A DNA stretch of 63,913 nucleotides, counting the filler, from Reclinomonas americana ATCC 50394 (taxonomy: Eukaryota), in NCBI GenBank assembly GCA_048213135.1. It is 13 parts of 13 records of this genome, joined end to end, with 100 filler letters (N's around TTAATTAATTAA, not from the genome) between each part and the next. Parts side by side here need not be neighbours in the genome. Positions count along the whole stretch, not along the records: positions 23,243 to 30,313 come from AFZH01017821.1; 12 more parts are not named here. One strand, 5' to 3'. The stretch's first letter is position 1. Each line of letters begins with the position of its first letter. The position numbers and the translations under genes were made by a program. Below are positions 1,207 to 31,921 of this stretch, piece by piece. Under the pieces are notes generated by a model that saw only the letters and a program-made list of their open reading frames with translations, was not told where the DNA came from and made no database searches.

Positions 1207-4200
1207 TCAAACATCAAGGGCGTCGGTAAAGTCGGGCAACACTGGGCCGATGATGCGCTCCACCAGCCCGCGAGTGCCTCGACGCATGAGATAGATTGAG
1301 CTGCCCGACACGCGAGCAGTGTACGAAGCGCCATATGCCATACAGCCAACAGTGACCACTCGGCCCGATTCAGGACTCACAAGGTCCGCCTGCTCGTCAA
1401 GGGGCACTTCTTCGCCATTGGCCAGTGACCACACACGAACAGAGCAGTCAATGCTCCCGCACACAATGTACTGACTGTCGGGAGAAACACCGACTGACAT
1501 TATCATGCCAGTGTGTCCCTCCGACCGCCGCACCTCTTCTCCACACTCTAGCGACCACACGCGCACTGTCTGGTCCTGACTCCCACTGACAATGTACTGA
1601 CCATTGGGGGTGACGACGACCGATCGCACCCAATTGTCGTGCCCCACCAATCGCAATACTTCATATCCATTCGACAGCGACCACACACGTACTGTTCCGT
1701 CGTTACTGCAACTCACGATATGCTGACCATCGGGGGTGACAGCGACTGAGTTCACCCAGCCAGTGTGTCCCTCCAACCGCCGTACTTCCGCTCCACTCGT
1801 CAGCGACCACACTCGCACCGTCAAATCATCACTGCCACTGACAATGAATTGCCCATCGGGAGTGACGGTTACAGAGTTCACCTCTGCAGTGTGTCCGTCC
1901 AACCGAAGTACTTCTTCTCCAGTCACCGGTGACCACACCCGCACTGAGTTGTCTTCGCCTCCTCTAACAACGAGCTGAACATTTTGAGCGAAAAAGAAAG
2001 CTGCACCACCGGGGCACTGCTCGCCAATTTTCCACAGTTCCTCACCGGTCGTCAAGCGCCACCTCCGCACCGTCCCGTCGGTACCTACACTCACAACGTG
2101 CTGATCATCGGGGGTGAGCACGACCGAATGGATCCATCCAGTGTGTCCTCCCAACCGACGTATCTCCTCTGCATCCCCCGCTAAACTCCACATTCGAACA
2201 GTGCTGTCTGCACTCCCACTGACCACATGCCGACCATCGAAAGTGGTGGCGACAGACAATACAGCATCAGTGTGACCCTCCAACCGTTTCACTTCTTCTC
2301 CACTCACCAGTGACCACATCCGCAGTGTCCTGTCCCAACTCCCACTGATAATGTGCTGCCCATCTGGTGTAATGGCAATAGTCGTCACTGCAGCAGTGTG
2401 TCCACTCAGCCGTAGCACCTCTGCGCCACTCGCCAGTGACCACACTAGCACTGACTTGTCCTTGCCTCCACTCACAATGTGCTGACCATCGAGAGTTATG
2501 GCGACAGAGTACACTTCGTCGTAGTGTCCCTCCAACCGCTGCACCTCATCGCCACTCAACAATGACCACACTCGCACAGTAGAATCCTCACTCCCGCTGA
2601 CAACGTGCAGACAATCAGGAGTGACGGCGACAGAGCACACTGCACCAGTATGACCCACCAACAGTCGCACTTCTTCTCCAGTTACAAGAGACCACACGCG
2701 CAACGTCGCATCCCCGCTCCCACTCACAACATGTTGACTGTCGAAAGTGACAGCCACGGATTTCACATCATCACTGTGACCTTCCATACATCGCACCTCT
2801 TCTCCACTCGTCAAACACCACACTCGCACGGTCTTGTCATGACTGCCACTAACGACGTACTCGCCTTTGGGTGTAAAGGCTACAGAAATGATCCCTCCTA
2901 AATGTCCCTCGAACTGCCACAGTTCTTCACCGCTCGCCAGCGACCACACCCGCAACGTGCAGTCCACACCCCCGCTGACAATCTGCTGATCACAAGGAGC
3001 GACAGCGACAGAGAAAACTGCGCCAGCGTGCCCCTCCATCGGCTCCCTCGGCCACGTCACTTCCGTCACATCCGCCCCTCTGAAATCCGCCTCCCTCGCA
3101 TACGCCATGCACAAATTCACTCCTCGCAAATCGGCACCCCTCCACACCGTCCTATGCATCACCGCGTCCCTCAAATCCGCACCCCTCAATCGCACACCCG
3201 ACAGATCTCGCCCACTGAACGATACTTGTGCCACACACAACACCGTCGCGGCATTCGCCGCGGCCGTCACCACTCGCTCTTCGTCCACATCTCGTGACAA
3301 TCCTATCACCTCCCACAGTCTTGCTTGCAACGCAGGAGACCGTCGCACCACCTCGGCCATCTGCTCCACCAACGATGGTCTGTCATTCAGCAGTCGCATT
3401 GCCAGCACATGCTGCCGCACATCTTCCATCGTCAACTTTCTCTCCTCATCCCACGTCTCCCACGCAAACACATGCCGCGCCACACAGTGCTCCAGCAACG
3501 ACAGATGCACGAATCCCCACTGCGTTGTCCCATACCGTCGCACAATCGGACAGCACACTCGCACATGCTGGTTCTTGTGACCGAGGAACTTGTCGAACGG
3601 ACCCTCTTCCACTCTTCGAATATCAAGTGGCGCACCGCCAAAATCATCCTCCTCATCACCTAACCGACTCTCCATCACAGACACACGCACAACATTCCTC
3701 TCATGCATGAACCGAGCCAGTCCCTCGCAGAAGGAGAGACACGTCTCCTCACTCGGCACACGCTCTGCACCAAGACGCGTCTGTCTCTCCTGCTCCCTCA
3801 AAATCCACTGTCGAATGAATCGGTCAAACGCATCACGCCGAGTCGGTCGCTGCACACCACTCGCAACCAACTGCGGCAACACGCGAGCCACCACTGCCAG
3901 CAGGAATGGATTCGACACCAGTGCATCCAGTCCATGCACACTCTGCAGTGCACGAATGTACTCCTCGGCAGTCGACCATCGCACGTCACCGTCATCATCA
4001 TCACCGCCCACTTGCACCAGTCGCTCAAAGTACTCTTCAATCTGCTCCTTGTTGAACGGTGCAATGTGTCGCTCCATCAACTGCTGCATGCACAACTGTC
4101 CTCGTGCATCCACTGGCGCAAACAGCCTTCGATACTGTGTCGCACCACCCAACGCCGTCAGTGCATAATCACCTCGACAGGTGATAATCACCTTCACATC

Positions 4201-5859
4201 GCGACACACATCCAACTGATTCTTGACAAACAGATTCACACCACGGTACAACTCGTCATACCCGTCCAGCAACAACAACAGTGGTTCCTCCTTCAACCGT
4301 CGCACATCCGACTCCAATCCCAACTCGGGTGACAATCGCTCCAGTGCCTCCACCAACAATCGCTCATCGGCATTGCGCAGTGCACCGAGAGGCACACGCA
4401 CAGGCACTCGTCTGCTTTCTCTCGTCTGCCACTGTCGCCACGCTCGCTCGGCTAGCACCGACATTGTGGTGGTCTTGCCGGCCCCGCTGTTGCCAAAGAG
4501 TACCAGCACACGCTGCATCGTGTTGGAGTCGGAGAGGAAAGCATCAACCTCTGTGGACAAATCCGTCATCTTGTCTCGCGACGAAACATCACGATCACGT
4601 GAGCATTGCAGTGGCACATACATCTGCATGTCCTTGTGCACACTCTCATCGTGCTGGTAGAATGAGAGCTCACGTACAGCCAGTCGCTGCAGTCGCTCCT
4701 CAAAAGTGCTGACGGTTAGCTGCACGGAACGTGCCTCTCGGACACGAGCAGAGAATCGCGCAAGCTCGTCAGCCGTCAACTGCAGTCGGGAGAGAATGGA
4801 GAGGAACACACCAACGTCACCGAGGTACTGCTGCACAGTGGAATCCGTCAGCGGCAGCTCATCGTGTTTCAGCTTGTTCCTGACGCTGTGCAGCTCCTCG
4901 ACCGCCTTTCGTTCAACGACATCGTCAATCAGCAGCAGCTTGCGACCGTCATCAAGCACAAAGCCACCATACTGCATGATGGCATGCAGCGCCGTCGTGT
5001 CGAGTCCGGAACACGACGGGTCGGACGAGGGGTCGGCGTCAAATGCAGCACGCCAGGCCACAACCACCGGCTGCTTTTCTTTGAATAGTGCAACTCGCAC
5101 AGAATGAAGCGGTGCGTGGCGATCACGCCACGCCTTCACAGCCACTACATCCATGCCAGCAGGCGTGAAACTCGGCACCCACGCTCGCACATCAAAGTCG
5201 AGATGATCCCGACTAAACTGTGCCAGTGCGCGTTGACAGCGCAGACGCACGGCCTCCTCCACCACCTCGAAGGCCATGTTGATGCGCTGTGAGTTAATCA
5301 TGCTGTGCGTGTACACACACAAACGCAGTCAGCACAGATTCACACACAGTGAAGAACAAGGAAAGGAGAGGAGGATGACGACGGCAAGCAAAACAAACCG
5401 AGTCACTCGCTCCGAGTTGCTGTGCGAAGACATGAGAGTGAGCTGCATGTTGCGCAGAGAGATGATGCACTCACATCCCAGACACACCTTGCATCCGCAC
5501 TCCCACTCCCTCCACTCGACTGCAGCGCCACGCGAACGTTCACACGGACGATGAGATGCGTGGATGAGTTGATTCCGAGTGTCCTAAGCTTTGTCACCGG
5601 GGCGTCTTCCAGCTCGTATTCTGCTGGCCTCTCCACCCCCACAATCTCCATCGCCCCATCTCCACTCTTCTCACGCATCAAGCGTGTGGCCTCGTGCAGC
5701 AAGCCCGCGAGAGTGGACACGGCCGACATGCCCTCCACCACCACCGACAGCGACGAATCGTGTGCCGCACTCACATTCACAGAGAACTTTGACACACACA
5801 CAAGTGCAGTGAGCACACAACAACAAAGGGAAGAGACAGGAAAAGCACACCGACAAACA

Positions 5860-14526: not shown

Positions 14527-15597
14527 TCACACTCTCGCATCCTCCCACCGAAACACCACCACCTCCGCCTCCTCCACCACAAAACACCGCAACACAATCT
14601 CCACCAGGCACCGACACTCATCCATCAAAGCCTCCTGCACCGCCGCCAGCGCACTCCTCGCCGCCACCTCCTCCCTCCGCGCCAGCACATGCGCCGTGGA
14701 CCACACCAACACCGCCCCATCCGCCCCACCCGACACAACATGCCGCCCATCCGCAGTGACGCACACCGACGACACCGCCCCGGTGTGACCCGCCAGCGCA
14801 AGCAACTGCTGCCCCTCTTTCGACCACACCTGCACGAGCTTACCACTGTCGCCAAACACGACATGCTGCGTGCCGACGGCCACACACGACACGCCACTCG
14901 CCAGGCCCTCCAGACGACGCACCTCGTCGCCACTCGCCAGCGCCCACAGTCGCACACTCTTTCCGGATCCGTGATCGCCCGTGACCACATGCCGCCCATC
15001 GCCGGTCACCGCTACACTGTACAGCCAGGTGTCGACACCGCGATGCCACACCTGCTCGCCACTGCCCATGCACCACACACGCACAGTGCCATCGGAGCCT
15101 CCAGAGACAAAGTGTCGCCCGTCGGGGGCGACAGCGACTGCCAGCACCCAACCTTTGTGCTCCCACAAACGATGCAACTCGTCGCCACTCTCCAAGCACC
15201 ACACGCGCACCGACTTATCGACACTGCCTGTCACCAGGCGCTTGCTGTCGGGCGAGATGGCCACTGCGCGCACTGCTCCCGTGTGTCTCTCAAACGAGAT
15301 GAGCAGGTCGCCGCTGGTGAATGACCACACGCATGCGCTGCGGTCGTCACTGCCGGAGACAATGAGCTTGCCGCAGGAGGACACGGCCAGAGCGCGCACG
15401 GACTTGGTGTGGCCTTGCAGGTGCCACAGCTCGTCTCCTTGTCCCTCCAGTGACCACACGTGGATGCAGTTGTCGCGTCCGCCCGAGAGGATGTGACGGT
15501 TGTCGGGAGTGACTGCCACGGCAAAGATGCTGCTGCTGGGGGTTGTGGTGGGGGTGGTGGTGGTGAGGCGGGTGCGGAGGGCGAGGGTGGGCAGCAT
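14527..15597 (-). CDS. Intronless WD40 protein (about 7 repeats) with a C-terminal helical motif
   Basis: Repeats such as GHTKSVRALAVSSCGKLIVSGSDDRSACVWS, of the same type as in the NLR. Tail VAARSALAAVQEAL...LVEIVLRCFVVEEA. Confidence 0.88.
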   Translation of the reverse strand: MLPTLALRTRLTTTTPTTTPSSSIFAVAVTPDNRHILSGGRDNCIHVWSLEGQGDELWHLQGHTKSVRALAVSSCGKLIVSGSDDRSACVWSFTSGDLLISFERHTGAVRAVAISPDSKRLVTGSVDKSVRVWCLESGDELHRLWEHKGWVLAVAVAPDGRHFVSGGSDGTVRVWCMGSGEQVWHRGVDTWLYSVAVTGDGRHVVTGDHGSGKSVRLWALASGDEVRRLEGLASGVSCVAVGTQHVVFGDSGKLVQVWSKEGQQLLALAGHTGAVSSVCVTADGRHVVSGGADGAVLVWSTAHVLARREEVAARSALAAVQEALMDECRCLVEIVLRCFVVEEAEVVVFRWEDARV

Positions 15598-16145
15598 GGC
15601 GGAGAGGGTGAAGGGTGGTCGGAGTGGGAAGGTGTTGTCCTGCACATGCGCGACGTCGCCTCACGCAGTGACGCAGAGACGAGGTGCCTGCCACTGCGAG
15701 GAAGCTGGAGACGGAGAGACACGAGTTCGTGGCTGGAGATGGAGAGACACGAGCTCGTGGCAAGTCCTTGATGAGTATCGTAACCATGTCCTGTTCGGGA
15801 TTGCCCTTCTTGGCCATGGTTTCGAAGCCTGTTAAGCTCTCACTGGCTTTGGCGAACCTTGATCTTCACCTTGGTAGCATACACCTAGCAGCAGCCTTGT
15901 GGGGTTTGCATCCTCTGCGATTGAGCTCCGCGAATTCGAATTCCGATGCATATGCTCCATTTCTCACATATTTTACCCTTGCATCCATGACCCGTGACCC
16001 TCGGCAGAACGCCCTGGAGGTCAAGACCGACCAATACCCCGCTCTGTTGATCACACAAACGTGGCCGCACTCACAAAGGCAACAATGAAGAAGCGAAAAA
16101 CTGGGATGGATGCCGTAAACAACCGTGCACTGTACATTCTCACTC

Positions 16146-20128: not shown

Positions 20129-22812
20129 TTGTCGATTTGTGGTGGCGCTGAGGAGAGAGTTTCACCTGACAAACTCGCTGTGGTTCTCTGTCGCAGTAAT
20201 CTGTCACGACTAGCCTCGTTCATCAAGTGCATGAGACGAGCCGTGCGCAAATTCGTGCGTTATGCCAAGGGTGCAGAGCAATATTTTGGGAAAGGTGTGT
20301 GTGTTGTTGCAGAGTCCGTGGTTCTCGCTTTCATTCTCCACCTCACTGATCTGTCAGCTCTTGCGAAAGGCCCGTGTGAGGACGTCAAAGTGGATACCTC
20401 CGCTGACGAACCCAGCGCGGACGATGATACTGGTGCATCGGGGTCTGGTGCGCCGGCCGAGGCCGACAAACTGGAGTTTTCAGAGTCGGCTTCTGATGTG
20501 TCAGCGCCTGGTGCATCGACTCCTGATTCATCGAATGTGGGTGGAGACACGCGGGCGTCGCTTGCAGAACTTGCCATGCTCACCTGTCCGTATCATGAGA
20601 GCACTGTGTCGCATCACAACCTGGCCGACATATTCCAGTGCTTCACGGATCACGGACTCCCGTCTCGGTTCGAGCACGTGATGGGAACCGTGCGACCCGA
20701 CTGCAATATTTCGGCCGCCGTGGGCGAGCAGTTCGAGGTGCTGTGCATGGCAGGAATTGCTTGCGGGCCTGCTCCAGAGCTTTTCCAACCTGCAGTCATT
20801 GACAAAATGTTTCGTAAGGTGCACGAGCGTTTTTGTTGTCGCGTGTTATTGTACCGCGAATCTAACTCGTTTGTGCACGAATTAGCACGGCGGCGTTCCC
20901 GAATACGTATACGGAGAAGCCGATTCGTGTCGGTCCTCGCGGCACCCGGTTCAGCGCCCTCAGAGTCGGCTTGCCAATCGCCTTCGGTGCTGACAGCGAA
21001 CACAAGGACTTTGTCAAGGTTGTGTGGAACATGACCGGCAACATGCTGATGATGGCCCACACATTGCGTGCCACGGATGCAAGACGTCAACTGCGCTGCT
21101 TCGCCATGCTGGCAACGGGTCAGTCCATCGCGTTGCTGGCGTTTCGCCTTGATCCGGCGCTGTGCGGCGATGGCGATAAATTCGCTGTTCTCGTTTCACT
21201 GGTGGGCACGTGGGTGCCGAGATTTGGTGCGTTTGTCCGCGCGCAGGCATTCGTGCTTGTGAGTCGTGGGTATTTTGTTCATCTTCTGAGTATTCTTACG
21301 ATGCAGGCGCAACTCAGGAGTCACTCGTGATTGCAATGACGCGAATGTTCTTGGCAATGTGTCGGAGTCAAGAGTTGCTCACGGAGGCTATTCGTGGTGG
21401 TCGGCGACAGCAATCTCTCCCCACGTGGGTACCCATCTCTTCAGATCCGAAACACCATGAAATCGGGAACAGTGCCAACAAGGTTGCAGAAAACACTCCG
21501 GCAAAACCTGCGGGACTGAGGCCAGCCACGTCGAGAAACCTAGTGTTTGGTGCGAAACGTCGCGTGGTGTTGCACGACGGTGAGTGACTTGTTCATGGCT
21601 CGATCAGCTGAACATTATTTTCTTTCCATTGCTGATCTGGGTCACGTTTTTGCAGATGGCTGCCGGCAGTGGGTCGTCAAGTGGGTCAACTGCAGCGAAT
21701 GTGCTCCGAGCGTTGTCGACGCTTTCGGGTGTCTGCACGAGGCTCAAGTACTTTTGCGGATTGCGTCGCCCGCGGTGCTCTCCATTCCTCGCGTACTCAA
21801 CTGGGGTCCGTTGCCGATCCCGATCCCCTCCAACATTGCCCACCGCCACCAATGGTTCGGGCTCACCACGCCGTACTATGGCAATGACTGGCCTCGCACT
21901 GTTGATGACGCGTGTGCATTGACGCGACACCTGCTGGCGGCGCTGGCGCACGCAGCTTCGCACGGTTACATTCACCGCGACGTGAAAGGCGACAATGTCT
22001 GCTTTTCGTCGCAGTCAATGGTGGCTGTGCTGGTTGACTGGGGCCACGCACGCTTCGTCGGAAACGGTGACTTGCCGTATGTCGGCCGTGGAGGCACCGT
22101 GGGCTACCTTGTTGCGCTCTGACTCGCCGCTTCCTGTCTGTTCCACGCGTTGTGTGCTAAATACTTGGGGGCGTTGACATGTACGCACATGTGCGCGCGC
22201 AGGCTCCGGAGTCGTTGCCAGATCCACTGGCGGCGACGGACGTAAGACGAGGTGGGCGAGTGGAGCTTCGCGTCAGATATGTGGAGTGCAGGCGTGGTGA
22301 TTGCCGAGGCGCTGCTGAAGCGGAAGCTGGTGCAGATCGATTCTTTTCTGCCTCACGTGGAGCCGATCGACTTGGCGACCACGCTCATCGAGTTGTTGCA
22401 CCAAGAGGCCGAGGAGCTGGCGGAGGCCGACAATGTCGCCGCGCATGCCCGATTCATGCAGGGCATTCAGCTTGTAAGCGCCTTGCTGATTGACAAGCCG
22501 CAGTGACGCCTGACGGCGCAAGAGGCACTGACTCACAGTTTCTGCATGCATGTGAGCCGCATGGAGTTTTCTGCTCCTGCTGGCGTTTCCGCAGCGGTTA
22601 CCGAACGCCCTGCTGACGCTCCGGCTGTGGCGGCCGCCGCCGTCACTGCTAGAATCGACTGCCATATCGGCGTCTCGAAACCTGACCCGGTTGCGAGTGA
22701 CGAGAACCAGCGCCAGGCAGCGTCGAGCGTGGCAACCGCACAGATGACGAAGGCAGTTCACGAGGAGCCGAGACCGATGCAAGTGCGGATTCCGCTGATG
22801 CCGAAACAGTGA
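20129..22812 (+). pseudogene. Ser/Thr protein kinase with long N-terminal extension, apparently disrupted
   Basis: WVVK, IHRDVKGDN, DWG, GTVGYL|APE, SDMWSAGVV and RLTAQEALTHSF are present. The frame changes between APE and DMWS (about 22203-22252) and an in-frame TGA sits at 22504-22506 within subdomain XI. Confidence 0.75.
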
Positions 22813-23258
22813 GGCGTGCAGCAGGCGGCCCACCACATACCCCTCAATATAGAGTAAAGAAGCTACTTCATGCCACCTTCCCGACTGGAGCGCACGTTGT
22901 ACTCGACATAAGTCGAGAAATGGCGGGAGAAAACAGCAATTTTCGCGCCCAAATCTCTGAATCTCTCTCTCAACACACACACATCGTCGCGAGTGCGATC
23001 GATGCTCGGGCAGATCGACTTTGAGGCGCTCTCCTATGGGTTGGAACGCGAGGCGCGATTTGAGGGTGTGTGCGGTTAACTGTGATTTCTCTCTCTCTCT
23101 CACTCACTCTCTCACTCTCTGTGTGTGCGTGCGTGCGTGTGTNNNNNNNNNNNNNNNNNNNNNNNNNNNNNNNNNNNNNNNNNNNNTTAATTAATTAANN
23201 NNNNNNNNNNNNNNNNNNNNNNNNNNNNNNNNNNNNNNNNNNGCGACGACGGAGGAGT

Positions 23259-23307
<49 letters not shown>

Positions 23308-23353
23308 CCTGTATATGTGTGTGTTGGTGTCTCACCTCGCGTGGGGTGAACAG

Positions 23354-24445
23354 GTTCTGAAAGGGCACACTCTCGAGGTCTGCTCCGTCACTGTCACGCC
23401 CGACGGCCAACACATCATTAGTGGGAGTGGAGACATGACAGTGCGAATGTGGTCACTGGGAACATGGAAAGCAGTGCGACTGTTCGAGGGGCACACCAAT
23501 GCGGTGACTTCTGTCGCCGTTACTCCCGATGGTCAGCATGTTGTGAGTGGCAGTGCGGACAAGACCGTGCGAGTGTGGTCACTGGCGAGTGGCGAGGAGG
23601 TGCGACGGTTGGAGGGTCACACAGAGGCCGTGCTTTCCGTCGCCATCACACCCGATGGTCAACGCATCGTCAGTGGCAGCTACGATCACACTGTAGGAGT
23701 GTGGTCTGTGGCGAGCGGAGAGATGGAGCAACAGCTACTGGGCCACACTGGGTCGGTGCGTTCCGTCGCCACCTCTCCCGACGGTCGGGCCATTGTGAGC
23801 GGCAGCATCGACGGCACTGTGCGAGTATGGCCTCTCGCGGGTGGCGAAGAGGTGCGAGACGTTACTCGTGCCAACTATCACGGAGTGTGGTCTGTTGCTG
23901 TCACTCCGGATAGTTCGTGCATTGTGATTGGGGGCCGCGACATGATGGTGCGCGTGTTTTCGTTTGCGAGTGGTGACACACAAGCTCGGCAAGTTCACGC
24001 GCTTCAAGGACATAGTGACTGGGTGTGCTGTGTCGCCGTCACTCCCGACGGTCAGTATGCAGCAAGTGGAAGCTACGACCGAAGTTTACGAATGTGGTCA
24101 GTGGCGAGTGGAGCCAAAGTGCGCCGCTGGTTTGCACACAGTGGAATCGTGTGGTCGGTCGCCATCTCTCCGGATGGTCAACACGTCGTGAGTGGGGGGG
24201 TTGACAAGACAATACAAGTGTGGTCCACGTTGCGCGGGCGTGCTGGGCTCGAGGTTGCGGCCGCGCGACTGGCGGTGGTGGCTGTCAATGAGCTGCTTGC
24301 GGAGCAGGAGGAGGAGAAGGAGGAGGAGGATGATGATGGTGACCGTCGTGAGTGGATCCTCGTCGATGTCGTGCTGCGGTGTTTTGTGCTGGAGGATGCG
24401 AGGATGATCGAACGGCGCTCGCCGGGGTGGTTGACGGATTTGTGA
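23354..24445 (+). CDS. WD40 protein (7 repeats), paralog of 14527-15597; 5' exon probably lost in gap
   Basis: Repeats such as GHTNAVTSVAVTPDGQHVVSGSADKTVRVWSLASGEEVRRL. Acceptor CAG at 23351-23353. Tail EVAAARLAVVAVNELL...LVDVVLRCFVLEDA. Confidence 0.9.
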   Translation, partial: VLKGHTLEVCSVTVTPDGQHIISGSGDMTVRMWSLGTWKAVRLFEGHTNAVTSVAVTPDGQHVVSGSADKTVRVWSLASGEEVRRLEGHTEAVLSVAITPDGQRIVSGSYDHTVGVWSVASGEMEQQLLGHTGSVRSVATSPDGRAIVSGSIDGTVRVWPLAGGEEVRDVTRANYHGVWSVAVTPDSSCIVIGGRDMMVRVFSFASGDTQARQVHALQGHSDWVCCVAVTPDGQYAASGSYDRSLRMWSVASGAKVRRWFAHSGIVWSVAISPDGQHVVSGGVDKTIQVWSTLRGRAGLEVAAARLAVVAVNELLAEQEEEKEEEDDDGDRREWILVDVVLRCFVLEDARMIERRSPGWLTDL

Positions 24446-24980
24446 CGTGCTGGCACCGTGGACGTACGCTGGTCGAGCGTCAAGCAAGAGGATTATGCGT
24501 AGCCCAGAGCCCCCCCCCTCTTATGAGTTTCTCCAGGGAATTCTGATCACTTCGTTGTCCTTCGCCCGGCATCTCGTGCCCGCATCAAGTGTCGTTCCCC
24601 AATGAATTTGACGATGTACACTGTATTTATCAAGTGGATGCAAACTGCCGTTGTCTCCAACGGCAGCCGCGGTGGCCTGGCACTCTGCCTCGCCGCCGGC
24701 ACCGCCACCGCCACCGGCACTCGATGCCAGCTCGTCGAATCAGCTGCACGGGGACGTTGATTTGGAGGAGGATGATGATGATGCTGATACATCGCAGTCC
24801 GATTAGTATGCCGCCGGCCGTGTCGGTCTCTGCTGCGAGTTCGGGTTTGTCGCAGGTGGTGGTAGAGAAGGAGTAATTAAGGAGCCACTGGAAAAAGTAC
24901 ACTCACCATCGTCGATAGTTGGCAACTGTTCACTACTCACAAGGCAACACTACAAACTGTCTTCAACCTATCCTCGCACA

Positions 24981-27900
24981 TCACCGCCGCGCCGGCGGTG
25001 GAGCCACAAACGTGTGGAATCCGTACCCCTCACCCGCATCCACGCCCTCCACTCGCACGCGGCACACCGGACACTCGCCACTCTTGCTTACCAGCCGCTC
25101 CGCGCACTTCCGGCACAAGACTTGGTGCATGCACGGACGCAGTCGCGTCTCGCGCAGTCCGTCGCACACCATGCACGCCCGCCGACACGACAACACCGTC
25201 AGGTCACTCAACTCGCTCGCCAGCTGTTGCGCCGTCGGACGACGTGCTGGTCGACCATCCAGGCATCTGCAGATTGAGCGTGTACGCCAGTCAGCGTGTC
25301 TCCTCGCAACACTCTCTGGGAAACACACAAGTACCTCAGTGCGAGTCGCACAATCCGCTCACACACAGGAGCCGGCCATGGTCGACCGACAGCAGCATCC
25401 GCCAGCTCCACCGCGGCATTGAGGAATGCTTCTCCGTCGTCGCCGTCAATGTCATCCATTTCCTCCAGTGTCTCCACTCGCCGATGCACCTCCTCAATCG
25501 GCAGGCCGCTGAACACTTGCAGGAGGACGAGACCGAGCGAGAACACATCCGAACTCAGTCGCAGCTGGCCATGCATGGCCTTGGGATCGGCATACTTCGG
25601 GTCGCCAGCAAAGTGCACTGACAAGTGCGTCTGTGCCATGCGCACGAGGAAGGGAAGGATGAGGGAACGGGAAGGGAGAGCGTGCAGGAATGGATCACTC
25701 ACTCCCTCGGTGCGGAACCAGTGCGCCACTCCCAGGTCCGAGATGTATGCCATTCCACTGTGGTTGAACAGAATGTTGGATGGCTTCAGGTCGCGATGGA
25801 TCACTGAGGGAGAGGGGGAACAAGTGAGTGGAACTATATGAGAGAAGGGTTGAGAACAGACACACGTACCATTCTGCGCATCGCGACAAACGAACAAAAA
25901 GACACGAGTCAGTCAACAAAGAGAATGATACCGGAACCACACGCATGATCTCCCTCACTCACATGCCTGCATTATCCGTAAGCACAAGGTGAGTCCAAAG
26001 AAATGGAGAGCAAAGCAACATACAACAAGATATTGGAGCGCAACTTATGCAGCGAGGCAACTGCTTCGGCACATCGCAGCATGCACGTCATTCGCGCCTC
26101 AATCGACATGGCCGGCAGTCCGCGCTCCGCCCACTGCAGCAGTCGGTGCGCCAAGTTGTGCTCACTGCAAATCACCTGAGTCAGTATACAAGAGCAGCAG
26201 ATGATCCCCACAGCGAGGCGTGGTGGCCATGGTGATTTCGACCAAGACAGAACAGGTCACATCCAAAACAATCAGTCTCTCTCTCTCTCTCTGTCTGTCT
26301 GTCACTCAGCCTCTACGTTACACATCCACTTGCTCCGTGCGATCTCTTTCTCCTCCTGCTTTCTCTCAGTCCGTCTTGCTCATCCCGCTTGCTCCGCTCT
26401 CTAATCTCTCGTAATCAATGTCATATCTACTACTCTCTGATCACCTTCCCTGTCGATCTTTGTGTCTCTCGCCTTTTCTTCTCTCTTTATCTCTCACAGA
26501 GTCAACCATGCTGATCGCGCTCTCAACAATCGCACCACTCTGCAGTCAATATATCTCTACTGTTCTCTGACCACCTTCCCTTCCTCTTTCCCCTTAAACT
26601 CACCTCATCGCCTCGAGCACCACACATCGCTTGCCGTCGTCAGACTCCGCAAACCCGATCAGCGGCACAACCCCAGCCACACTCACCGCCTTGAGCTTCT
26701 CCAACTGAGATGCACGCAGAGAGTGAGAGCGAGAAGACCACATTCTCCCTTCTCTGCTTCACGAACCTCATTGGAGAACGACTCGATGCACCACGGCAGC
26801 GCACTGTCAAACACCTTGATGGCCACACTCTGTCCGGCCCATTCCCCACAAAACACCTTGCCCTGTCCACCATCGCCACCCAGGCGCTCCGCGAAATTGT
26901 TGCTCATCGCCACCACTTGTTCCCATGAGAATGCCGTCAACGGCGCTGCGTTCATCAACAAGCAAACAAAGTGAGTCTCCAATCATCATCACACTTCCCC
27001 TTCCCCTCCTCCAGCCTCACGCACCCCGATGGGTGAGATCACGCTGAACGGCGACCAGATCAGCCTCGAGTCGCTGTGCTCGGTCATGTTCGCGCTGTCG
27101 CTGCTCGTCCACACGATCCAGCGCTTCCTGCAGCGCAGCCCGCGCGGCTTCCTGCTGCTGGAGCGCGGCAGTATGCTCCGCAATGGTCACTTCCTGCTGT
27201 TGTACGCGCTGTTGCCACTCGCTCATCTTCGCTCGCTGATCATCCAATTGTCGCTGCAACTCCTCCATCTGCTGTTGCACGCGAGGCACAGTATCGTCCA
27301 GCTGACGCGAGCGCTCCTGCCACTCGTTTGTTCGCTGCCGCCACTCCTCCTTCTCTCGCTGTGCCGACTCGACCTCCTGTTGCAGCTGAGCAGCAGTTTG
27401 CTCGTATTGCTGCACACGCGCCTGCCACTTGCTTGACTGCTGTCGCTGTTCCTCCAGTTCTTGCCGCACAGCGTCGGGCTGGCGGAGAGCTTCTCCCATC
27501 CTAGCAGCCTGGCCGACAGGGCCAGCCTGCTCGAAGGCGACAGAGGCGGAGGGTGTTCCAGATGCCTGCTGGGATGTGAGCGAACGGGTCACACGGAAGC
27601 AAAGGCTGGGCACCAACGAAACCGTTGATCCTGTTGGTGATTTCACAGCGTCGACAGCCACTGTGTCGGGGAGCAAGCGCGTAAGATGGGCGTGATGAGC
27701 AGAGGTGACACAACTTGAACTCACAGTTGGAAGAGCCGGGCAGACCTTGTTGCTTCGTCTTCCCCTCCTCCTCCTCGCCTTCTTCGTATGATACTCCTCC
27801 CTTGCGCCGAGCATCCTCAAGAGCAGCACGAACGTCATCCAACAACTTCCGATCGGCTTGAGTCGGCATAGTCTCGTCACCGAGACTTCGTCGCATCTCG

Positions 27901-29321
27901 GTCCACATCTCCAAGAGACGCTCGGCTTCCGCCAAGTTCCTGACGCCGCCGAGTTTCGAGAGGTGGAACGCAAGGTTGTGTACACAAAGCAGCGTGGTTG
28001 GGTGACAGTCGCCAGATCGTTCTCGTCGAAGAGGTAGCAACGCCCGCCCGATTTGAACTGCATCTCCAAAGCTCCCGCAGTCCGCGTAAGCGAGTGCGAG
28101 TTGGAACATAGTCTCCAACGAGGCGTCGCTTTCCCGTTCCTGCCTCTCCAGTGTATCACAAAGCACGGCAACAGCTTCCTGTTGTCGACCAGACAGTCGC
28201 AGGGCGGTGCCCAGTCTTGCTGACACGGCAAGTGTGCGCGAGTCTCCGGCACCATGCAGCTGTCTCCACCGCTCACGCGCATCCTCCAGTAGAGTAATGG
28301 CCTCCGACAAACAGGCCTCGCCGCCGACGCGAATAAGACTCTTGCTGAGGCGGGAAGCGCATTCTATAACTCGCTCGTCGTCAACGCCGTACGCAACGCG
28401 TGCCTGTGTCAATATCTCGCGACCGACGTCAACTGCCGCCTCGAAGTCACCGCTCTCGTGGAGCGCGTGGGCGAGGAGATGCATAGTCTGCAGCCTATCC
28501 GCGCCAGGACTGTCTACTGGAAATAGAATGCGTTGTCGGCTCTGCAGCGCGTCACGCAGCACCACGATTGCCTCGGGGTACCGACCGAGCTTGCAAAGTG
28601 CGTCACCGAGCAACCGCGCCGCTTGTGGTCTGACGGGATTCTCGTAGCCAAAAAAACTGAAGGGATTACAAACGCCAACTAAACCATTACCCTTGTACTC
28701 GACCGCGCACTCGAGGAGAGTCACAGCCTCAGTCAAGTTAGCCGTGCCGCCAGCTCCCATGAGAGCCACCGCAAGCTTGAAACCACTTAACCACCTTAAA
28801 TCCTCATCAACCCTCCACAACACGTCTCGGGCAACGTCCACAGCCTCCTCGTGCAAATGCGCGGTGGTGAGAGCGGCTGACAAATCGCCCATCGTCTGCA
28901 CCAGCAATTCGTCGGTGTTGCGCAGCACGCGTTTCATTCTCTCCACCGCAGGGCGCTGCAAATCGACAGCCTCCACGAATCGATGTGCTTCGAACAATTT
29001 CTTCCCCAGTGTGGCCGACACTGTCAGCGTCACCTTGTGGTCCTCACCAAACACCTGACTGTACCGCGCCAACAGTTCCTCGAGCACCGGAATCACACCA
29101 GCTGGGTCTCTCGAAGAAGAGAGACAGGTAACGTATTTGAATGCGGCCGGAATCGTCCACTTCTTGTTCTTGGGGCCGAGCACCTCGATAAAGTCGCGCA
29201 CACACTCGGCAACAAGTGGAGTTGCTGCGTCGAAGTTGAAATTGGGAGCCCTCATGAGAGTCATCGCTTCTTCGTACCGAGCAGTGGCTGCGGCCAGGCG
29301 TTGATCGGTGTTGCGGCTCAT
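24981..29321 (-). CDS. TPR repeats, coiled coil, IRAK/Pelle/RLK-like kinase and C3HC4 RING finger (multi-exon, with two 4-nt microexons)
   Basis: Kinesin-light-chain-type TPRs (VFGEDHKVTL, SGDCHPTTLLCVHNLA); Q/E-rich coil at about 27030-27500; FSWEQVVAMSNNFAERLGGDGGQGKVF, VAIK, HRDLKPSN, DLG, SDVFSLGLVLLQ, RRPT; RING CMVC...PCMH...CRKC...CPVC. All junctions were checked by hand and are in phase. Confidence 0.88.
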
Positions 29322-29614
29322 GGATTGCGTGGAAAGGGAGAGGGATTGAGACAGAGATGGAGTGAGAGCGAGAGAGAGAGAGAGAGAGCGGATGAGAGCA
29401 ATGAGGTGCAGTCTTCTTGCGTGTGCGTGTGCGTGTGTAGATGTGTGTGTGTAGTGGGACGGGGACAAGATTCTTTTCCTCGCCGTCTCTCACGCTATAA
29501 CACGTCCGCATACACTCTTTATATCACGACCGCTCCTGTCATCAGTTTAACTTCACATCCTCCACCTCGCTTCCCACCTCCACCCGTCGCCGTCGGTGTC
29601 AGCATTCCGTGTGA

Positions 29615-31921
29615 TTATGAATGGATCTCAACGAGCCAACACAGTCGCTGATTTCGCACGGTAACGCATCTCGGCCGTAGTGGGACCCGACGACCGTCTA
29701 CAGAGTGACACCAAAGTGAGCGAACCCCCAGGAAATCACATTTCCTTTTCGCACGTCGCACGCAACGATGCACGACCAGGCACAGCACCCGGCGACTGTG
29801 ACGACGGCTGCAGAATCGACTGCAACAGCATGCCGCCACGTGTACCGCTTCCCCGAGTTGCCCCCGCCGCCGCCGTCGCCGACGAAGCCGCAGCAGCTGC
29901 ACAATTGCAATCAACAAACGTGAGCCTGATGAGCGACTTCACATGCCGGCATAAAGAAAGCAAACGTACTTGGCAGCCGTCGATCTTGCGACGCTCTCCA
30001 CGTACGGTAATTGTCCATGGCAGACTGTGCCGCAGCCGACACTCTGCACACACAATCGTATGAGCTTCGCATTACAGGCAACAAGTATTCTGCGCGTCGC
30101 ACCCATCCTCAAACGACTGCAGCGGCGGCGTACGTGTGCCCGGTGCGGAACTGCGCGAGCGATCGGGCGTCAGAGCCACCGACCCGAATGGAGCCGGCAT
30201 GCGGCCGCCGCGTGACTGTATGAGACCGCCCTTTGCCATGTCAGCACCCACTGTGCAAGCACCGTGTCGCAATCCACACAGACACACACATACAGACACA
30301 CACACACAGACACNNNNNNNNNNNNNNNNNNNNNNNNNNNNNNNNNNNNNNNNNNNNTTAATTAATTAANNNNNNNNNNNNNNNNNNNNNNNNNNNNNNN
30401 NNNNNNNNNNNNNGGACGGGCCAGCACTGCCACCACCTACTCTTGACGGGGGCATAAGACGTCGCTTGATGGGCGACATGCTCAGCGTCATGGTGCCCTT
30501 CGGGTCGGCGATCGAGGACATGCCAACCGAATCGCCATTGGCCGACGCCAGCAATGCAGCCGAGAACCCACTGCCGCCGGCCGCCGCCGCCCCAGCCCCT
30601 GTGGACGGCACCATGGAGGGCAACAGGCTGGCGTCGCCCACGTACGCATTTCCGCTTCCCGAGCCAGCTGCGGCGCCACTCGCCACCGTTGACACGGTCC
30701 GCTCGCCCTGCTTCCATAGCCGCGGTTGCATTCTGTTGTGAACAACGAAAGTGAGTTTAAATCAATCGCCTCCCCACGACTTACGCTGCCGCGCAACTGC
30801 TTCAAGAAGTTCTGCTGCGGTCCAATCACACTGCCCGGTCGACATAGTCGCAGGTAGCCAATCACCTGCGAAAGGCGCACAGAATGTCGTGTCAATAATG
30901 GCATTGAGAGAGAAAGAGAGACGCAAACGTGGACACACCTCGGGTGCACTGAACCGGTAGTGCTTCATCAAGTAGCAGGCAATCAGCGAGCCGGTGCGAC
31001 CGAGACCGGCCTTGCAGTGCACAGCAATCGCCCCGTTGGACTGCTCGGCAATCTCCAGGAACCGTCTCACGATATTATCCGATGGGGTCGAGCCGTCGGG
31101 GAAGAACAGGTCGTGATGCGCAAAGCCGGCATCGAGGAATTTCCTTCTCTCGTACACCTTCTTGTTCAGCCGCACAATGGTCGTCACCCCGAGTCGCCGG
31201 AATACCTTCACGTAGTCCTCTGTGCGATGCGTGGTTGAGCAAGCGTGCAGGGGTCATTGTTTCCATCCTCGATAACACGGTGTGCCTGTCAACTGCAAAG
31301 TGCGCATTCTTTACATCTCTCTCTCTCTCTCTTCAAATATCTCCCTCGTTCTCTCTCTCACTCTATCTGTTTTTCTTTATTTCTCCATGCAAGTCTTGGT
31401 TCTGCATCACAAATCACAATGGCCTTCCAGCTCTCCAGAACTTCCGTTTGCTTCTTCGTCTTCTAAATTTCCTCTCTCTTCCTTCTCACTCACATGTTCT
31501 CTCTCTCTCTCTCTCTCATACACACACACACTCTCTCTCTCTCCATGCACGTCGCGGCTCCCGCTCTCCAGAACTTCCATTTGCTTCTTCGTCTTCTAAA
31601 CCTTTCTCTCTTCCTTCCCACTCAAGTGCTCTTTCTCTCTCTCTCACACACACACACACTCCACGCACGTCTGCTGCTCTGCAACACAAATCACAATAGC
31701 CTTCCAGATCTCCCATGCTTTCAATTGCTTCTTCTCCCTTCGCCTCACTCTCGCTCTCTCTCTCACCATCTGTGTTTGTGGTTCCTGCGGCGCTTCTCCT
31801 CATTCTCGCTGTCGCACATGCAAGTGTGCCACTCGGTCCATGTAGATTCATGCTTCTCGCCAGCGCCCTCTCTCTTGCTCTCTCTCGCACACACAAACAC
31901 AAACGCACACACACGCACACA

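Follow-up and report, generated by a model that had tools for sequence, protein, structure and literature searches.

In the TLR-IRAK-TRAF6 and RLK-PUB pathways the kinase and E3 ubiquitin ligase (E3) parts act as separate proteins. In TRIM5/TRIM21-type restriction factors a variable binding domain, a coiled-coil dimer and a RING E3 share one chain. Kinase and E3 are joined in the plant PUB-VI or RLCK-IXb U-box kinases (Arabidopsis PUB32-35, 50-53 and 61), and also in 'TKL/IRAK' records of Capsaspora owczarzaki (P0163, CAOG_08838, LRR-kinase-RING; P0165, SH2-kinase-RING; P0170, COR-B-kinase-RING-RING) and in the Logan protein P0195 (ankyrin-helix-kinase-RING). Here we describe a gene of Reclinomonas americana ATCC 50394 (assembly GCA_048213135.1) in which a tetratricopeptide repeat (TPR) domain, a coiled coil, an IRAK/Pelle-derived kinase and a RING are joined in one open frame, together with the family to which it belongs. 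The gene occupies positions 29321 to 24981, on the minus strand, of a 63,913-nucleotide (nt) stretch made of 13 parts of the genome joined end to end with filler, referred to hereafter as the window.

A kinase-RING cassette with exchangeable front ends is already in the databases, as the Capsaspora proteins and P0195 show, and the fusion is less novel than the initial annotation implied, since the kinase-RING part occurs in Capsaspora and other protist records. Like the product of this gene, those proteins are soluble and lineage-expanded, with an IRAK-type kinase directly followed by a zf-C3HC4_3 RING, a similar short tail and swappable N-terminal binding domains. In contrast to them, the front end here is a TPR domain (or a different ankyrin module) followed by a coil of ~150 amino acids (aa), and the Tyr gatekeeper that the Capsaspora kinases retain is a Leu. 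The PUB-VI proteins have an N-terminal domain, a long helix, an RLK/Pelle kinase and a C-terminal E3 in the same order, but their USP domain is replaced here by TPR or ankyrin repeats, their U-box by a C3HC4 zinc RING, and their nine genes by dozens; no account of a sensor face that diversifies in the PUB-VI proteins came up in the literature. Animal IRAK4, Pelle and PIK-1 fall in the same kinase clade; the present gene differs in its Leu gatekeeper and in having no death domain. The fungal TPR/ankyrin NLRs (PMC4986451) and the Ectocarpus NB-ARC-TPR/ROCO genes (PMC3341825) share, according to the available text of the two reports, the repeat classes, selection on the concave face, clustering, birth-and-death and cassette exons. 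Unlike them, the genes described here have no NACHT, NB-ARC or ROC switch, the sensor is N-terminal, the repeats within a gene are not near-identical, the TPR domain is a single exon and it is the effector part that appears homogenised. TRIM5/TRIM21 provide an analogy only, given their opposite domain order, PRYSPRY sensor and lack of a kinase.

No description of TPR- or ankyrin-coil-IRAK-RING proteins, of selection in them, or of the Capsaspora IRAK-RING expansion was found in the literature, supplementary kinome tables lying outside the search, and no such family is mentioned in the portions of PMC10463195 and PMC3517549 that were available. Homologues were sought by word index with exon 10 (597 candidates) or with a partly misaligned C-lobe/RING alignment (8000 candidates), and none were found, which is weak evidence against a close relative. 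When a profile was searched against 1.84 billion representatives, multi-kinase proteins dominated the result; with the TPR exon not among the queries, that search says little about single-domain relatives or TPR-kinase-RING proteins elsewhere. In a protein-cluster atlas, kinase-RING clusters with haptophyte members were returned at 0.86-0.93, while a second query gave generic kinases only; these are leads only. With the architecture class known from Capsaspora, and from PUB33 in plants, the gain lies in evolutionary evidence at the level of the family and not in the fusion.

The balance of that evidence tips somewhat towards reading the gene as a predicted cytosolic non-self sensor and E3, one of a lineage-specific repertoire that lacks an NLR switch. 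Conflict with microbes or viruses would be the most likely driver.

An expanded family with variable front ends

About 60 copies, this gene among them, are present in the genome; second haplotypes may account for half. The kinase C-lobe has at least 65 matches in the genome at E below 1e-23, from 150 scored among 324 candidates; for the RING exon there are 66, of which 63 are near full length. Many loci are paired at 88-97% identity, flanks included (for example the G000:C125 and G000:C95 arrays), and the contig that carries the gene (window 23243-30313) is 94.8% identical to L013 across 5.65 kb. This pairing suggests that the organism is a diploid of high heterozygosity whose two haplotypes were assembled separately; the copy count is therefore inflated, and about 30-35 distinct loci is the safer guess.

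Many copies are arranged as head-to-tail tandem arrays. Among 31 loci whose upstream frames were scanned, 19 have TPR, nine have ankyrin and three have neither in those frames. One locus (L060:3561-6957, minus strand) places four tandem ankyrin cassette exons, each phase 1-1, before a single coil-kinase-RING unit. Tandem ankyrin cassette exons were likewise observed in L043, L047 and L059, and splicing might join such exons in series or use them as alternatives. Broken or reduced copies are also present: L014 and L046 carry stops, L058 has a frameshift and some copies have no RING. HRN, HGN or HGD stands in place of the HRD motif in nine copies (L027, L032, L036, L042, L048, L050, L051, L085 and L086), some of which lack the RING or the repeat domain; these are possible pseudokinase regulators of the family.

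Selection on the repeats and uniformity of the kinase-RING module

The two ends of the gene have diverged to very different extents. Within the gene's own subfamily (9 genes, 36 pairs), median values for the TPR domain were 44% identity, dN 0.50 and dS 0.88, compared to 96%, 0.019 and 0.32 for the kinase plus RING. Nucleotide identity in pairs such as L019/L031 is ~0.65 in the TPR domain and rises to 0.9-0.97 over the kinase, introns included, and in several array members with dissimilar TPRs the kinase introns are alike at 0.93-0.98. Gene conversion of the 3' module, or swapping of sensors, would explain the uniform kinase region.

Codon site models were run with our own code on fixed FastTree topologies, with naive Bayes posteriors and no recombination model. 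For TPR subfamily B (12 genes, 246 codons) twice the log-likelihood difference (2dL) was 54.4 for M1a/M2a and 37.5 for M8a/M8. The corresponding values were 12.7 and 13.3 for the TPR domain of the gene's own subfamily (7 of its 9 genes, leaving aside two partial near-duplicates) and 19.4 and 22.9 for the ankyrin modules (10 of 16, five divergent modules and one without an anchor being omitted). In the kinase plus RING, 2dL was about 0 in both cases, and omega was 0.117 and 0.059. The TPR domains are thus under positive selection, focused on the ligand groove and weaker in the gene's own subfamily, while the kinase and RING are under strong purifying selection (omega 0.06-0.12) and appear homogenised.

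The focus on the groove is seen when sites are assigned to positions within the 34-residue repeat. Positions 2, 5, 6, 9, 12 and 13 are the ligand-contact positions on the concave face, as set out in the accessible part of PMC1261162. In subfamily B, 22 of 30 sites at these positions were selected (posterior >0.9) compared to 2 of 140 elsewhere; in the gene's own subfamily, at a posterior >0.5, the counts were 22 of 60 and 17 of 280 (Fisher p = 6e-19 and 4e-9, respectively). The initial annotation had inferred a single-chain sensor, kinase and E3 ligase. It missed the wider family, about 60 copies strong, with TPR or ankyrin fronts and selection on the binding face, which is the real evidence for a sensor.

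The same numbers might be read as a housekeeping family of substrate-adaptor E3/kinases that diversified once to endogenous clients, with omega>1 being mostly an artefact of recombination and relaxed constraint. Omega for the whole TPR domain is below 1 (0.43-0.62), and the discordance in dS between TPR and kinase makes recombination likely. Recombination, however, would not target six groove positions of 34, the ankyrin-fronted copies show selection independently, and tandem birth-and-death with broken copies does not fit such a family, which we regard as unlikely.

Another possibility is that the species' own genome encodes the fast-changing ligands, so that the same sensor and E3 mechanics would serve allorecognition, mating or conflict with selfish elements. 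Selection on a binding face is silent on the identity of the partner, and fungal NLRs with such repeats function in allorecognition, as stated in the available sections of the literature on them. The diversity, however, lies between paralogous loci, about 30 or more of them, and not among many alleles at few loci, and probable haplotype pairs are 94-99% identical in the TPR domain. A self-encoded ligand therefore seems improbable, if still worth keeping in view beside the non-self sensor that we prefer.

Gene model and its comparative support

The whole gene lies inside a single contig (G000:C2354; AFZH01017821.1), bounded by the N-joins at 23143-23242 and 30314-30413. Ten GT-AG introns and 11 exons give a single open frame, which begins with the ATG at 29321, ends with the stop at 24981 and encodes a protein of 1088 aa in the order TPR–coiled coil–kinase–RING when the exon-6 donor is set from paralogues. 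Pfam recognises TPR_12 (1e-28) in exon 1 and Pkinase (3e-11) and zf-C3HC4_3 (8e-10) at the 3' end. The open frame requires two consecutive 4-nt microexons, at 25966-25963 and 25873-25870 (minus strand). The exons are as follows.

Exon 1, 27725..29321 (-): start ATG, ~11 TPR repeats of the TPR_10/TPR_12 type (aa 1-505), acidic/low-complexity tail and phase-1 donor; Pfam TPR_12 1.2e-28 and TPR_10 1.7e-19; donor phase kept in subfamily paralogues.
Exon 2, 27623..27660 (-): linker of 38 nt, phase 1 to 0; of 12 subfamily copies inspected, 7 have a small homologous exon that uses the same donor.
Exon 3, 27025..27565 (-): linker and ~150-aa predicted coiled coil rich in Gln, Glu and Arg; weak long-coil Pfam matches, a 3.5 hydrophobic period, and continuous with the kinase in L040/L041.
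Exon 4, 26767..26945 (-): pre-kinase motif, Gly loop (insert of one residue, Gln at the aromatic position), beta3 Lys and alphaC Glu; the family N-lobe profile finds plant RLK structures first.
Exon 5, 26604..26704 (-): beta4-beta5, Leu gatekeeper.
Exon 6, 26045..26164 (-): alphaD-alphaE; donor 26044 preferred over 26023, with GT there in 45 of 46 models.
Exon 7, 25963..25966 (-): 4-nt microexon required by the frame; 4 or 10 nt in most paralogues; joined to exon 6 in L040/L041.
Exon 8, 25870..25873 (-): 4-nt microexon; a 4-nt candidate at the same place in 55 of 58 copies.
Exon 9, 25703..25803 (-): HRD catalytic loop and DLG; Pkinase 2.8e-11.
Exon 10, 25335..25630 (-): P+1 loop with GD in place of GT and Lys in place of the APE Glu, alphaF-alphaH; top PDB match IRAK4.
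Exon 11, 24981..25266 (-): kinase subdomain XI, C3HC4-type RING (about 25181-25044), short tail and stop; zf-C3HC4_3 7.9e-10; BLASTP match to the kinase end and RING of P0195 (29% identity, 2e-16); 66 genome matches.

An alternative exon-6 donor at 26023, giving a model of 1095 aa, was dropped, the paralogues favouring 26044. No segment reaches the hydrophobicity of a membrane span, the maximum Kyte-Doolittle value over 19 residues (1.58) lying within kinase alphaF. Neither a death domain nor an ectodomain with a transmembrane helix was found in the gene, TPR is the only repeat class that Pfam sees, and Pfam finds no NACHT or NB-ARC domain in any scanned exon. The hydrophobicity of the coil exon peaks at a period of 3.5 residues.

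Paralogues share this structure. Of 59 anchored kinase copies, 46 gave a complete kinase model that is free of stops and has its introns at the same positions; contig ends, gaps, inversions or loss of introns interrupted the remainder. The candidate for the second microexon lies 60-102 nt ahead of the HRD exon, and both common lengths of the first preserve the frame. In L040 and L041 the coil|kinase, both microexon and the kinase|RING introns are gone, so the coil–kinase–RING joins exist in the DNA. The TPR-to-coil join is predicted from conserved splice signals only, namely the phase-1 donor, the small linker exon and the acceptor. An apparently intronless TPR-coil join in L045 and L048 was discarded, as the L045 frame runs through intron-like sequence. 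The fusion of the four modules into one frame is real at the level of the DNA. In-phase splicing of four modules into a single chain, as initially annotated, is thus borne out by comparative splice evidence, not by cDNA, and a look-up of RNA data over 24900-29400 gave none. The quoted pre-kinase and activation-segment motifs are all present, as are the DLG in place of DFG and the Lys at the APE glutamate.

Were the TPR exon a separate gene lying ahead of one for coil, kinase and RING, one would expect repeat and coil to be parted by introns, as they are in every copy checked, and coil-kinase copies with no detected repeat domain, such as L027 and L032, would be natural. We consider this arrangement very improbable given that donor, linker exon and acceptor are conserved in paralogues, that no stop precedes the donor, that merely 64 and 57 nt of intron separate the modules, and that module order is fixed in at least 28 loci.

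Placement and catalytic residues of the kinase

When the C-lobe was used to search PDB, IRAK4 came first (73 bits versus 56 for the next family), followed by plant RLKs. A family N-lobe profile, aligned from the pre-kinase segment, whose motif we take to be of the RLK/IRAK type, gave plant RLK structures as all of its top four matches, and exon 4 alone found activin/TGF-beta receptors first, weakly. With a profile of the full kinase, a plant RLK and fish IRAK4 scored best among 279 fetched proteins, a pool rich in both groups. Maximum likelihood trees (LG+G4, long stem; outgroups confined to oomycete-type TKLs and bacterial kinases, with no RAF, MLK, LRRK, RIPK or TK) placed the family inside the IRAK/Pelle/RLK clade with 73 rows (96/96) and with 61 rows (100/99), the latter after six sister kinases from the same genome were added and 18 rows dropped. 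In approximately unbiased (AU) tests, placement outside the clade with oomycete-type TKLs was not quite rejected (p = 0.266 without the sister family and p = 0.0596 with it). Grouping with animal IRAK as sister was rejected (p = 0.027), and grouping with Capsaspora-type kinases was not (p = 0.123), although such a clade was not recovered in the tree. The plant U-box kinases are nearest in the 61-row tree, weakly (94/84, unstarred, with two PUB-like rows only); a grouping with RLCK-IXb was not recovered in the 73-row tree or in one further tree.

A Tyr gatekeeper is described as a hallmark of IRAK/Pelle/RLK kinases in the part of PMC4260089 at hand. It is absent from all 46 family models, with Leu in this gene. 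The IRAK/Pelle/RLK affinity proposed at the outset thus gains from the best PDB matches and the trees, and loses from the gatekeeper and from the AU result for an outside placement. Because the trees place it within the clade and yet this residue is missing, the kinase is best called IRAK/Pelle-derived and not a canonical member. A second and larger family of IRAK-type kinases in this genome, sister to the present one and arranged in tandem arrays (L073-L084 and L088-L092), shows matching exon breaks and also lacks the APE glutamate. The Tyr gatekeeper and DFG are found in 8 of 8 models of this sister family (the extraction pattern demanded both, which were also seen unfiltered).

The beta3 Lys, alphaC Glu, HRD Asp, catalytic-loop Lys and Asn, and Mg-binding Asp are all present in this gene, and each is present in 40-46 of 46 models (beta3 Lys 43, alphaC Glu 45, HRD Asp 40). 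With these residues the kinase is likely to bind ATP; whether it transfers phosphate normally is less sure, and we would place that only a little above an even call. DLG or DMG replaces DFG in 45 of 46 models. All eight zinc ligands of the RING are present, with an Arg after the last Cys; the pattern is unbroken in this gene, as it is in 41 of 46 models, and the domain is a predicted C3HC4 zinc-binding E3 ligase.

Proposed function

In the mechanism that we favour, the concave TPR groove would bind a fast-changing foreign or self-variant protein and the coiled coil would dimerise the chains. Clustering driven by ligand might lead the IRAK/Pelle-derived kinases to phosphorylate themselves or each other, or to serve as ATP-binding switches, and the RING would ubiquitinate the captured target, the receptor or both, so that removal and signalling would be combined in one chain. 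Such a protein would work like PUB33 with an NLR-type variable repeat sensor added, minus the NOD switch. PUB33 has kinase and E3 activities, oligomerises and ubiquitinates a pathogen effector, according to the available text (10.64898/2026.02.10.704836). The same pattern of selection is reported for the TPR and ankyrin sensors of fungal NLRs (PMC4986451), and sensor-face selection is alike in the Ectocarpus NB-ARC-TPR genes (PMC3341825), as far as the accessible portions of those papers extend.

The P+1 loop GT and the APE glutamate are features of active Ser/Thr protein kinases. In all 46 models the GT threonine is an Asp and the APE Glu is missing, and a kinase that lacks these and the Tyr gatekeeper may be weak or dead; the atypical kinase first suggested is thus a stronger case than was stated. 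This is one of several points that weigh against the non-self sensor. The selection signal is modest in the gene's own subfamily, and the codon tests ignore recombination, which is likely here and would inflate the signal, and include probable haplotype pairs. Ligand-contact positions vary in TPR families generally (PMC1261162, in the same part), and the groove signal therefore indicates changing partners, not necessarily pathogens. Moreover, pub33 mutants are described, in the text available, as having no clear immune-signalling defect (10.64898/2026.02.10.704836).

These substitutions, the DLG/DMG motif and the HRN or HGN/HGD copies would also suit a catalytically weak kinase that acts as bait or switch for pathogen effectors, leaving ubiquitination as the sole output; predicted pseudokinases occur among the PUB-VI group (same preprint, available text). 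A bait should co-evolve fast, yet the kinase has an omega of 0.06-0.12 and zero selected sites and retains the Lys, Glu, HRD, Asn and Asp residues, which makes a decoy or scaffold rather unlikely.

More broadly, and tentatively, the non-self sensor might represent a third kind of cytosolic receptor in innate immunity, alongside NLRs and TRIMs, in which a swappable, selected TPR or ankyrin sensor is coupled to a coil-IRAK kinase-RING unit kept uniform by gene conversion. If so, together with the Capsaspora LRR and SH2 forms and plant PUB-VI, it would suggest that a kinase-E3 cassette for defence is ancient and predates the TLR-IRAK-TRAF6 and RLK-PUB pathways. For pathogen recognition by unicellular eukaryotes the family is a testable candidate, offering dozens of natural binders, a mapped groove under positive selection and the same two assayable enzymes on each. 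The expansion and E3 fusion of IRAK/Pelle-derived kinases outside plants and animals also bears on the role of this clade before TLR and RLK signalling.

Other genes in the window

The window also carries a 1373-aa frame without introns (1210-5328, minus strand) with a NACHT domain (1.9e-8), a pentapeptide repeat and at least 12 WD40 repeats, the architecture of a HET-E-like NLR; the organism therefore has NLR-like genes. Further WD40 frames with regular repeats lie at 23243-24445 (plus strand) and 14530-15660 (minus strand). Starting at the contig edge and read towards the 3' end of the kinase-RING gene, the former may represent the last part of a further NACHT-WD40 gene. Neighbouring contigs contain an unrelated protein kinase fragment (21544-22506, plus strand) and a dual-specificity phosphatase exon (30762-31253, minus strand).

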